In this document: one piece after another, positions 1 to 3,000 of the stretch
How positions within the stretch are numbered: the first letter of the stretch is position 1
Layout: every line of letters begins with the position of its first letter
Virus record (IMG/VR): IMGVR_UViG_2645727555_000019
Length of the DNA stretch: 11,743 nucleotides
Origin: a virus
Lineage: Duplodnaviria > Heunggongvirae > Uroviricota > Caudoviricetes
Reading direction: 5' to 3' (one strand)
Made by a program: the position numbers

Positions 1-3000
1 TTCCGTTCATATGAGCAAAAGTGGTGTTGAAGAAACATCCGTTTTGTGATGTTTTTTTAATCTTTTTGGGGTTTTAATTCCTATCGATGAACGTTACGGG
101 CAATTTTCACAGAGTAGTTAAAAGCTACTCTGTGCTTGAACTCACGTAAAGTTTCACCTTCAAGTTTGAAGAAGTGTTTTTCCTCAATGAAACGACCTTT
201 GTTTTCGTGGTGATTCTGGCGAATACGAATAGCTTCTGTGCCGTAAAGGTGCGCCAAAAGTTCGGTAGTGATAACGGGGATCTGCTTGTAAGTAATCGTG
301 GAGAGTGTTTCAACAGAGATTTGAGTTGTCATAATGACGCCCTCGAGTGGTTTCTTAATAACTCACCACCGACGACGCCAATCGTCTGGTGGTGAACTGT
401 GCAGGGTTGGCGTAACCGGGAAACCGACCGGCGCGGATCTCTCCGCCCCCACACAGCCCACCATAATTCAGATGTGCGCGTGCATACGACAATAAAAAAC
501 ACGCTCGCGGCGTGTATCTGTCGCGGTCTCTATCCAGGACGCCAATCCCGACGCCAGATTTTGCTGGCGCGTGAGGAATATAGCCCCGAATAAATCATCA
601 CGTCAATCACCTTGTTTTCCTCGCACGATGTCTTAGCCACCGGATATCCCACAGGTGAGCCGTGTAATTGAAGGCTTTAACGTCAGATTCTTTTGGGATT
701 GGCCTGGGTTTATTTCTGGAACGTTTCGTTGGAAGGTAATTGCAGTTTTCACAGACTATATCGGTAATGCTTCGTCGCTGTCGTCTCATTCATACCTCCT
801 GTCGGTAAATCTGACACCCTGCTCCACAGCCCAGGAAGTTGTGTACTCAATCAGGCTTGCCATACGCTTCACGCTCATCTGCGCACTGCTTTCGCGGATA
901 TTGACGTATTCACCTTCAAGACCAGGCAAAACATCAGCTTCCTGTTTTGTCGCCACGGCATGACCGCTGATTAACAAAACTTTCCACTGTTCTGGTTTTA
1001 GCCATCTGCCGCACCACTGAACCTGTCGGGAGATATCAGCGACCATCGCGTGAAATTTGGCATTTTGATCGAGATTCCGCTTGTAATCGGTGATGCGGAT
1101 CGTAACGGGTTTGTCTTTATCGAGAGTTGTTGCAAGGATGGCGTTAATGGCGAATTGTTGCTGCTGCTTACTTCGGAGGAAGATAGTCTGGTTCATTATT
1201 CCCTCTCACTGGATTTTCCCAACAAAAAAGGAGCCGAAGCTCCTTTAGTTTCAGAATTCAAATTGTCTTGCCCGTAGGCTTTTCAGCATTGGCATGGCCC
1301 GCTGGATAACGGAACTTGACATGTCGAGACGTGTTACCTCCCTCAGTAGCGCGTCTCTGTTCTTCGTCACCATGTAGATGGTCTCAAACGCAATGTCATA
1401 CAGCTTGTTCGTGTATGAGGAGTTCAGCTCTTTCATAATGGGATACAGGTGTTTGCTGATGTCCTGGGCTTTTTCCATCCAGAGCTGCATGTAGCAAAGG
1501 AGGATGATTTCTTCGGCTGTGAATTGTGGCTGAATCTGCGGCTGCTGTTCGGTTGGTGCTGTTTTTCCCTGGCTGAAATAGCAGTCTTCCAGTTTTTCGA
1601 ATACCTCCCACGCCCGATCGGTTTCGAGCATTTTTGCGTGACGGGCTGCGCCGCGTTCTGTCCAGAGGATGAGGGAGCGGGCATTTTTACCAACTAACCC
1701 GATTGTTTCGGGTCTGTTCTTAAACTCGCGTAATTCGTTTTTTTCAATTTTAAAGTAATGCTTTCCGGGCATGAATCGCGTCGTGTTGTTCAGAAAGTTA
1801 TCAGAAATGTTTTTGATTTTTGTTCCGTAAAGGTGAGCCAACAGTTCAGTAGTAATTACGGGGATCTGGTTATAGGTAACAGGGGAAAGGTTTTCGACAG
1901 AAATTTGAACAGCCATAATGACCTCGCGTTTCGATAATTTTTACCTCGCCACCGTCAGGTGCTAATCATCGTGGTGGCGAACTGTGCGGGGTTAGCACTA
2001 CCGGTCGAAACATCCGGCGAGCCTTTCGGCTCCCCCACACAGCCCGCCATAAATCGCGAATGTGACTGTGCTTAGCGCATAAAAAAACCGCCAGCGCGGT
2101 TATGCACCGTTTCGATATCCGGGGTGCTAATCCCGACGCCAGGTTTTGCTGGCGCGTGAGGAATATAGCCCCGAACACGCGACGTTGTCAAACTGATGGC
2201 ATTGCAGATCCCTACGCAATGTAACACTATGTGTTATACATTAATAACGGAACAAAAAATGCGCATTTTTAAAAACGCCTGGTTTGAGCGACTTGCACGC
2301 AAAACAAAATATCCGACCAATCACTGCGCGAAATTGTTAAACAGGCTGATAACGGGCTTATCTCAGCAAACCTGGGTAACGGCGTTATCAAGCAACGTCT
2401 GCCACGAGTCGGTGGCGGCAAATCTGGCGGTTATCGCACAATCATTTTCTATCGCGTCGGCACAAGGGCCTTTTTCGTATATGCATACGCAAAAAATGAA
2501 CGTGAAAATATAACCGCTACTGAGGAAAGTGCATTTCGGAAGGGGCTCCTCACGTACTCAATCTAACAGATGAACAACTGGCACAACTGATTCTACAGGG
2601 TCAGTTTACGGAGGTACCCAATGAGTAAAAATTACCGCAGTGATGCGCTTGCATCCGTACATGAAATGATGGAATCGCTTCATGATATCGGCGCAGTAAC
2701 GAAACAGACTATGCGAGAATTCGATGAAACTTGTCTCCAGCCAGCGCCGGTAATGTCTCCGGAAAGGATCCGTGCACTGCGCGAACGAGAGCATCTGTCT
2801 CAACCTGTTTTTGCCAGATACCTCAACGTCAGTAAAAACCTGATATCAGACTGGGAACGTGGTGTAAAACGGCCGGGAGGTGCCGCTCTTCGCCTTCTTT
2901 CAGTCGTAGAGAAAAACGGAATCCAGGTAATATCATGATACTCCAATACAACAAAACCCGCCGAAGCGGGTTTTCATTAGAAGCACCTTTAGTTTTGCTG

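Follow-up and report, generated by a model that had tools for sequence, protein, structure and literature searches.

The window analysed here is a stretch of 11,743 nucleotides of viral DNA (Caudoviricetes; IMG/VR record IMGVR_UViG_2645727555_000019). Positions 2259–2628 hold a frameshifted toxin gene of PF06296, a family of RelE-like toxins of the HigB-2 type, and an antitoxin ORF (2621–2938) lies directly behind it. Toxin and antitoxin together form accessory cargo of the nin region in an E. coli lambdoid prophage. The frame opened by ATG 2259 encodes MRIFKNAWFERLARK and then unrelated residues until TAA 2511–2513, giving a product of 84 amino acids. The core of the toxin is in a second frame, which stays open between 2288 and TAA 2564–2566, and a third frame supplies the C-terminus. 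The TAA at 2626–2628 that ends the third frame lies beyond the antitoxin ATG at 2621–2623, an overlap of 8 nt within ATGAGTAA. Thus, the toxin precedes the antitoxin with overlapping ORFs, as in HigBA-type operons, and intact relatives have the same layout.

2259–2304, plus strand: toxin pseudogene segment 1, codons 1–15 (MRIFKNAWFERLARK), in frame with ATG 2259
2301–2304, plus strand: first frameshift, a run of four A where intact copies have five (CGCAAAAAC); one A lost at codon 15/16
2305–2543, plus strand: toxin pseudogene segment 2, codons 16–95, RelE-fold core with R47, R60, Y77 and K79
2543–2544, plus strand: second frameshift, a C lost between the two positions, AAGGCGGCT (intact) to AAGGGGCT (here), codon 96
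2544–2628, plus strand: toxin pseudogene segment 3, codons 96–123 (APHVLNLTDEQLAQLILQGQFTEVPNE) plus stop TAA 2626–2628
2610–2614, plus strand: putative ribosome-binding site GGAGG read from the sequence, 6 nt before the antitoxin ATG
2621–2938, plus strand: intact antitoxin, 105 amino acids; N-terminal part of ∼45 residues, then a C-terminal XRE-type helix-turn-helix, HigA-2-like

A toxin split over three frames

The initial annotation had described a RelE/HigB-like toxin killed by two single-base deletions, readable only by joining three frames, with its stop overlapping the start of an uninterrupted 105-aa antitoxin gene. Intact homologues and the family assignment bear this out. The frames run as claimed, the homologues agree with the reconstruction base for base rather than contradicting it, and both the 8-nt overlap and the open antitoxin frame are confirmed. 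We placed the lesions by alignment with intact relatives of 96–99% DNA identity that carry five A and GGCGG. The first shift had been expected within 2297–2310, and the A run falls inside that interval. The second, proposed near 2558–2562, has to be moved, as the alignment puts the loss of C ∼15 nt upstream, at 2543/2544. Because 2558–2562 lies inside 2524–2563, where both frames are open, this shift cannot be placed from the sequence alone.

The deletion at codon 15/16 parts the sole start codon from the catalytic core, so that the only ATG product is the 84-residue protein, out of frame past residue 15. A start-codon scan found no ATG, GTG or TTG in the middle and last toxin segments, excluding rescue through an internal start. 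Instead of a single uninterrupted ORF of ∼123–124 aa, the coding sequence is split over three frames. With the core out of frame with the ATG, the locus lacks the active toxin that, together with a cognate antitoxin, makes a functional type II module. The toxin is a true pseudogene of PF06296 and not a working member of the family.

Restoring one base at each deletion site yields a repaired toxin of 123 aa. This sequence matches PF06296 over positions 1–120 of 120 (E = 6.4e-46; 155.9 bits, curated cut-off 27), a score by which the predicted protein's similarity to the family is far beyond chance. An intact E. coli protein cluster of 123 aa, present on 654 contigs, shares 98% identity with it, and full-length relatives typically measure 123–124 aa (1271 matches). 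NCBIfam and PADLOC contained no model matching the toxin and gave no defence-system assignment, and PHROGs places toxin and antitoxin alike in families of unknown function. Intact toxin relatives include WP_077168034.1, at 99% DNA identity, and WP_001217944.1 of the O145 type.

The closest known system is HigB-2/HigA-2 of V. cholerae (PDB 5JA8, 5JAA, 5J9I; PMC5416850), which shares the toxin family and the toxin-first gene order. HigB-2 is a ribosome-dependent mRNA nuclease of PF06296 encoded ahead of its antitoxin (PMC11980606), and its catalytic residues are R51, R64, Y82 and K84 (Hadzi et al. 2017, PMC5416850). R47, R60, Y77 and K79 of the repaired toxin align with these four and are the predicted catalytic residues; all lie within the middle segment. 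Direct similarity between the two toxins is weak (E = 0.004) and confined to residues 41–91. HigB-2/HigA-2 resides in the Vibrio superintegron, whereas the cassette described here sits in a lambdoid prophage and has a toxin pseudogene.

HigA-2 is also the best solved relative of the antitoxin. The helix-turn-helix half aligns (E = 8e-8, residues 45–99) while the N-terminal half does not; residues 1–44 are nearly invariant across lineages and have no sequence match to the HigA-2 N-terminus, though in length they suit the disordered N-terminal part with which HigA-2-type antitoxins fold onto the toxin and neutralise it. Pfam HTH_3 is found at residues 50–94 (E = 1e-7), and the protein matches phrog_2104 from end to end (E = 3e-43). 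In close relatives the antitoxin is RefSeq WP_000042397.1. Since it has its own putative GGAGG site, translation of the antitoxin need not be coupled to that of the toxin.

Repeated loss of the toxin across E. coli prophages

The toxin has been broken repeatedly across E. coli prophages. Within the lineage at ≥95% identity, it is disrupted in 32 of 38 genomes, as counted by match length with one representative per class checked by alignment. These haplotypes carry the first deletion only, the second only, both, the second plus an A lost at 2526, or the second plus an IS66 insertion. A different lesion, an inserted G, breaks the toxin in 37 of 168 genomes of a lineage that is 78% identical; at least 131 genomes of that lineage are without it. 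The two deletions occur in all four combinations, a pattern compatible with more than one order and number of origins.

The double-deletion allele is 100% identical over 2230–2640 in 17 complete E. coli genomes, several O104:H4 strains included, and the out-of-frame 84-aa product is present on 210 public contigs. A search with the full window turned up no complete genome identical to it. FORC_069, the top match at 99.9% over 98%, has the first deletion only, and the toxin stretch of the window is instead identical to that of O104:H4. The region is a mosaic, and the antitoxin gene itself contains a recombination breakpoint near 2729. A distant DNA search of the phage collection returned a single record, phage PhiR12_3, which carries the first deletion only.

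In our view this is very probably a type II cassette in decay, of the HigB-2/HigA-2 kind, with a dead toxin and an intact antitoxin, on an E. coli lambdoid prophage. The toxin would have been lost first, as the logic of addiction predicts: loss of the antitoxin is lethal while the toxin works, and loss of the toxin costs nothing. The locus is a well-documented and ordinary case of the known pattern in which the toxin of a toxin-antitoxin system dies first. In ccdO157, Mine et al. (2009) reportedly found inactivated toxins beside antitoxins that stay functional. A passage in PMC7167474 describes ccdO157 as an E. coli chromosomal type II system decaying by deletion or accumulated nonsense mutations across strains. 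The likeness lies in a chromosomal type II system decaying within one species; the differences are another toxin fold and target (CcdB, gyrase) and a fixed chromosomal site in place of a prophage.

Surveys of E. coli and Klebsiella pneumoniae have shown orphan antitoxins to be abundant, with proposed roles in anti-addiction and cross-regulation or as remnants of degraded loci (PMC10790755; PMC7192599). They score the presence of genes, whereas this locus retains the toxin remnant, with its exact lesions and haplotypes resolved. The decay series is unusually well resolved, comprising intact copies, each lesion alone, both lesions, further hits and an IS insertion, and it could be used to measure whether the antitoxin stays under selection once the toxin is dead.

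The antitoxin as possible shield, remnant or regulator

The antitoxin gene, its ribosome-binding site, a conserved upstream palindrome and the likely terminator are all intact. The two flanking features are:

2220–2238, plus strand: putative operator, imperfect inverted repeat TGTAACAC-TAT-GTGTTATA, 20–40 nt upstream of the toxin ATG
2953–2974, no strand assigned: GC-rich hairpin AAAACCCGCCGAAGCGGGTTTT flanked on each side by a T run, reported by a scan on the minus strand; plus-strand T tail TTTTCATT read from the sequence

The palindrome was found by eye and by conservation, and was not reported by an inverted-repeat scan. The block TGTAACACTATGTGTTATA is the sole upstream stretch conserved between the lineage of the window and the 78%-identical O145 lineage, and the palindrome may be the binding site of the antitoxin. 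No sigma-70 promoter for the operon passed a simple scan. The hairpin is likely a two-way terminator between the antitoxin and a converging Doc toxin gene. The antitoxin is presumably still produced and presumably still represses its own promoter.

The antitoxin could additionally neutralise intact homologous toxins in trans, given that a single residue (V26I) distinguishes it from the antitoxin beside an intact toxin of the O145 type. Other E. coli lambdoid prophages carry intact toxin homologues. Plasmid records, those of E. coli included, yielded no close homologue: all 277 plasmid protein matches are below 60% identity, and these distant matches come mostly from Sinorhizobium, Piscirickettsia, Rhizobium and Coxiella. 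Any protection would therefore face related prophages and not plasmids. There is a weak hint in the data that retention of the orphan antitoxin serves a purpose, for example the neutralisation of intact homologues carried by other lambdoid phages. More specifically, selection might keep it as a prophage-borne shield against the intact HigB-2-like toxins of competing or co-resident lambdoid phages. Behind such a shield, a lysogen could lose or exclude these phages, or recombine with them, and escape poisoning. On this view, the toxin would have been killed repeatedly and independently because selection in hosts with many lambdoid prophages favours an "antidote only" state. We offer this tentatively and regard it as rather doubtful.

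In anti-addiction, a role that the initial annotation had raised along with a regulatory one, an antitoxin already in the host counteracts the toxin of a homologous module on its arrival (Saavedra De Bast et al. 2008, cited in PMC7167474). That case set a complete chromosomal module against a plasmid, whereas here other lambdoid phages are the only candidate targets. If the protection is real, it would amount to anti-addiction of phage against phage; anti-addiction as such is already known.

The sequence record is compatible with purifying selection on the antitoxin, to which it points weakly. All 57 full-length matches among those sampled are exactly 318 nt and free of indels; the other three sampled rows, from diverged lineages, end near query base 306–307. 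Across eight close haplotypes the antitoxin shows 0 nonsynonymous and 3 synonymous changes, against 5 nonsynonymous and 2 synonymous changes and 3 indels in the toxin. This comparison gives Fisher p = 0.17 for nonsynonymous against synonymous changes and 0.035 with indels, from small counts in haplotypes that are related and recombining. Between intact lineages, antitoxin codon changes are 22 synonymous to 1 nonsynonymous.

Alternatively, the antitoxin may be a functionless neutral remnant that would decay in time, still intact owing to the recent death of the toxin and to recombination with intact modules, which keeps restoring the allele. We consider this quite possible, though short of probable. 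The close haplotypes are less than 2% apart, so an intact antitoxin could simply reflect recent decay, and dead and intact haplotypes differ by only 0.5–2% over the toxin, leaving little time elapsed. The signal for selection is marginal, the mosaic breakpoint near 2729 falls within the antitoxin itself, and every listed complete genome of the window lineage has one copy of the cassette and no second homologue to neutralise. Reviews also see chromosomal toxin-antitoxin systems as decaying slowly in near-neutral evolution (PMC7167474). A purely neutral history is, however, harder to square with the uneven distribution of damage. Several dead haplotypes have been hit twice in the 372-nt toxin (a second deletion, the A lost at 2526, or IS66), and the toxin has gained five amino-acid changes, while the neighbouring 318-nt antitoxin shows neither second hits nor such changes. 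Additionally, at least 1000 contigs encode the exact antitoxin protein, and few of the cluster members read are truncated. In strain NMBU-W12E19 the antitoxin gene is intact although IS66 cuts it off from its promoter, a finding that suits slow neutral decay no less than selection.

It is improbable that the antitoxin has been co-opted to regulate neighbouring phage genes, for instance by acting on the divergent promoter that drives the adjacent upstream module of C4/isrK antisense RNA and antirepressor. The putative operator does lie ∼30 nt from a strong promoter-like site on the minus strand (TTGACA, 18 nt, TATATT; 2191–2162). The centre of that operator is, however, ∼70 nt upstream of the inferred start of the divergent transcript, and the O145 cassette, with a near-identical antitoxin and the same palindrome, sits in another neighbourhood without an adjacent antirepressor module.

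Ribosomal slippage, sequencing error and database annotation

After each deletion a run of four bases remains on which the P-site tRNA could slip back by one base and pair again, and toxin could in principle still be made at a low level through two −1 slips, at A AAA T (2306–2310) and G GGG C (2543–2547). Joining the frames in that way does yield a full-length product of 123 aa, with N16T and A96G as its sole differences from the repaired, intact-type sequence. We nevertheless judge such rescue very unlikely and reject programmed frameshifting (recoding). An X XXY YYZ heptamer is found at neither site, and two independent slips would be required, making the yield the product of two small frequencies. 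Moreover, other haplotypes carry lesions beyond the reach of slippage, such as the IS66 insertion, and the 5 nonsynonymous to 2 synonymous changes indicate relaxed constraint on the toxin.

That the frameshifts are homopolymer errors of sequencing or assembly in a toxin that is really intact is hardly credible: the sites are an A run and what is now a G4 run, sequence types that some platforms miscount, but the same double deletion recurs in the 17 complete genomes, among them separately deposited O104:H4 strains, and on the 210 contigs, the second lesion drops a C from GGCGG and is no homopolymer miscount, and single-lesion intermediates are known as separate haplotypes. Assembly error was one of two possibilities that the initial annotation had named as fatal to its reading. 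Identity of the allele across complete genomes argues strongly against it, on the strength of sequence records rather than reads, and at the population level the sequencing-error reading is effectively refuted.

The dead toxin of this decaying cassette is still annotated as a toxin. In the RefSeq records examined, the O104:H4 outbreak lineage included, its fragments are labelled "RelE/ParE family toxin" and not pseudogene, and toxin-antitoxin counts in these strains thus include a dead toxin. The fragments annotated in this way use the non-canonical start codons ATA, ATT and ATC.

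Two one-base deletions in a HigB-2-type toxin gene

The toxin-antitoxin locus reads as follows in the window:

From ATG 2259 (+), first toxin segment: MRIFKNAWFERLARK, then out of frame to a stop at 2511-2513 (84-aa product)
To TAA 2564-2566 (+), toxin core in a second frame
To TAA 2626-2628 (+), toxin C-terminus in a third frame, with an 8-nt overlap with the antitoxin ATG (2621-2623)
2621-2938 (+), uninterrupted antitoxin ORF, 105 aa

The initial annotation had read this layout from the sequence alone, and the ORFs and stops agree with it. We placed the lesions by alignment with three intact relatives, HCP4S3_I4, SCU-104 and 2013C-3033 (99.0%, 98.1% and 96.4% identical over 2230-2640, respectively), each of which has a 372-nt, 123-aa toxin ORF. 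The first lesion is the loss of one A from an A5 run at window 2301-2304 (CGCAAAAAC to CGCAAAAC), and the second is the loss of one C between 2543 and 2544 (AAGGCGGCT to AAGGGGCT). Both one-base deletions proposed earlier are borne out by this alignment; the position proposed for the second is not, as the true site lies ~15 nt further upstream. Because both frames are open over that stretch, this site can be located only by comparison. With that coordinate corrected, the intact relatives and a match to PF06296 support the proposal of a RelE/HigB-like toxin with two lesions beside an intact helix-turn-helix antitoxin.

Assembly error, also raised initially, was checked against public genomes, where the lesions recur identically. 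Seventeen complete genomes, several O104:H4 strains among them, match the 411-nt stretch 2230-2640 at 100% identity, and the 84-aa out-of-frame product occurs on 210 contigs. Additionally, the second lesion is a C lost from GGCGG, which homopolymer miscounting does not explain. Error is thus effectively excluded at the population level, and the inactivation of the toxin beside an intact antitoxin is real.

With both bases restored, the 123-aa protein covers PF06296 from end to end (E = 6.4e-46). It shares 98% identity with a cluster of intact E. coli proteins present on 654 contigs and fits the length of full-length relatives (typically 123-124 aa among 1271 hits). Vibrio cholerae HigB-2, a ribosome-dependent mRNA nuclease whose gene precedes that of its antitoxin, belongs to this family (PMC11980606). 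HigB-2 is the nearest solved structure to the toxin (E = 0.004) and HigA-2 to the antitoxin (E = 8e-8, residues 45-99), which shares its length and C-terminal domain with V. cholerae HigA-2. The HigB-2 catalytic residues defined by mutagenesis, R51, R64, Y82 and K84 (PMC5416850), align with R47, R60, Y77 and K79 of the repaired protein, all within the middle segment. A start-codon scan found no in-frame ATG, GTG or TTG in the middle or last segment; judged by its start codons, the gene cannot yield toxin through normal initiation.

Toxin states across E. coli

The locus is present in 217 of 5426 complete E. coli genomes, and every copy is chromosomal. In the lineage at least 95% identical to the window (n = 38), the toxin is disrupted in 32 and intact in 6, as counted by match length with one representative per class checked by alignment.

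Toxin haplotypes and their carriers
Intact
First deletion only: FORC_069, PS2C, LZHX12, phage PhiR12_3 and others
Second deletion only: locus L024
Both deletions: window, O104:H4, AST198
Second deletion and A lost at 2526: 23CRST047, locus L022
Second deletion and IS66 at ~2385: NMBU-W12E19

The two deletions occur in all four possible combinations, so there has been either recombination or recurrence, and recurrent loss in the A-run is plausible. The 78%-identical sister lineage carries an independent +G frameshift in 37 of 168 genomes. Among public assemblies, a survey covering 40 of the 97 members of the 90% cluster places the four listed 123-aa variants on ~900 contigs and the two main first-deletion products on ~400. 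In NMBU-W12E19, the IS66 (tnpA, tnpB, tnpC; 1-2418 of its locus, ~window 2385) separates the toxin 5' half and native promoter from the antitoxin, which is still intact.

One practical use of these results is corrected annotation of toxin fragments, and the haplotypes offer a tidy natural series for studying toxin-antitoxin decay. In four RefSeq loci (L001, L002, L003 and L011), fragments equivalent to window 2291-2566 are called as 'RelE/ParE family toxin' CDS starting at ATA, ATT or ATC, with no pseudogene flag from the NCBI pipeline. In the +G lineage, NCBI annotation calls the toxin as two separate toxin genes.

Integrity and possible fates of the antitoxin

The antitoxin gene spans exactly 318 nt in 57 of 57 full-length sampled genome matches; the remaining three sampled rows, from diverged lineages, end near query base 306-307. 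We compared eight close haplotypes picked by toxin-region similarity, so that the choice is unbiased toward intact antitoxins. The antitoxin has 3 synonymous changes, 0 amino-acid changes and 0 indels among them, and the toxin 5 nonsynonymous changes, 2 synonymous changes and 3 indels. Fisher's test of toxin versus antitoxin (p = 0.17 for substitutions alone, p = 0.035 with indels) is suggestive of purifying selection on the antitoxin but not conclusive. Judged by codon differences between intact lineages, both genes are constrained (51 synonymous versus 17 nonsynonymous in the toxin, 22 versus 1 in the antitoxin). Rescue of the toxin by two -1 ribosomal slips, possible on paper, would have an extremely low yield, and both the relaxed constraint on the toxin and the alleles disrupted by an IS contradict it.

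A GGAGG ribosome-binding site of its own precedes the antitoxin ATG by 6 nt. An imperfect 19-nt palindrome at 2220-2238 is probably the operator, because no other block upstream is conserved between this lineage and the 78%-identical one.

The locus is an ordinary case of a known phenomenon, toxin-antitoxin decay, in which a toxin could be lost freely and an antitoxin could not be lost while its toxin works. Decaying chromosomal systems have been described (PMC7167474), and orphan antitoxins are abundant in surveys (PMC10790755; PMC7192599), with anti-addiction, cross-regulation or an inert remnant listed as possible fates (PMC7167474; PMC10790755; PMC7192599). That this antitoxin is a recent neutral remnant and nothing more is the serious rival. 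For anti-addiction, a plasmid target appears unlikely because complete E. coli genomes hold no plasmid copy of the locus and none of the 277 plasmid hits reaches 60% identity. Other lambdoid phages with an intact module would be plausible targets. The antitoxin of the intact O145-type toxin differs from that of the window by one residue, and the window-lineage complete genomes listed have one copy of the locus each.

A recombination breakpoint lies inside the antitoxin gene at ~window 2729. Beyond it and as far as the 3' end, the C-terminal half of the antitoxin is diverged (~84% identity) in 2013C-3033, SCU-104 and phage PhiR12_3, whose toxin DNA is 97-100% identical to the window lineage. 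The O145 lineage is the converse case (toxin 77-78%, antitoxin 92.5% identical). In SCU-104 (2225-2530 of its locus) and JNEC-KY203 (2224-2529), an additional gene annotated as 'HigA family addiction module antitoxin' comes directly after the antitoxin; no HigB partner is annotated, making it another apparent orphan antitoxin in the same hotspot.

Prophage setting and neighbouring modules

The window covers the early/nin region of a lambdoid prophage of E. coli. Its phage genes are on the minus strand, among them NinB, ORF6N/P22_AR_C antirepressor-like, DUF551, DUF977 and DUF1627 genes. Its top match over the whole length is strain FORC_069 (99.9% identity, 98% of length). The neighbouring features are:

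385-583 (-) and 1970-2168 (-), a P1-type antisense-RNA control module present twice, each copy with C4 antisense RNA, isrK RNA and the C4 targets a1/b1, which all exceed their Rfam gathering scores; the second copy is upstream of the antirepressor-like gene
1251-1916 (-), ORF6N/P22_AR_C antirepressor-like gene
2191-2162 (-), strong promoter-like site, oriented divergently from the promoter region of the toxin-antitoxin pair
2989-3483 (-), intact Doc/Fic-family toxin (TIGR01550, E = 1e-35)
3493-3717 (-), small ORF upstream of the Doc/Fic toxin (59 aa in RefSeq; phrog_2208, function unknown), which may be the Doc antitoxin
3882-4094 (-) and 4032-4206 (-), hok/sok type I locus (Pfam HOK_GEF for the protein; Rfam sok, 116.9 bits, for the RNA)

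The antitoxin is unlikely to have been co-opted to regulate the divergent antirepressor module, as the toxin-antitoxin cassette also occurs in other neighbourhoods.

With hok/sok beside the others, this prophage therefore has three toxin-antitoxin modules in ~2 kb. The Doc/Fic pair and the antitoxin gene converge. In all sampled dead-toxin loci with the window's antitoxin type, the Doc/Fic cassette is found between the antitoxin and hokD; both sampled intact-toxin loci with that antitoxin (L008 and L018) lack it, an association which may reflect shared ancestry only.
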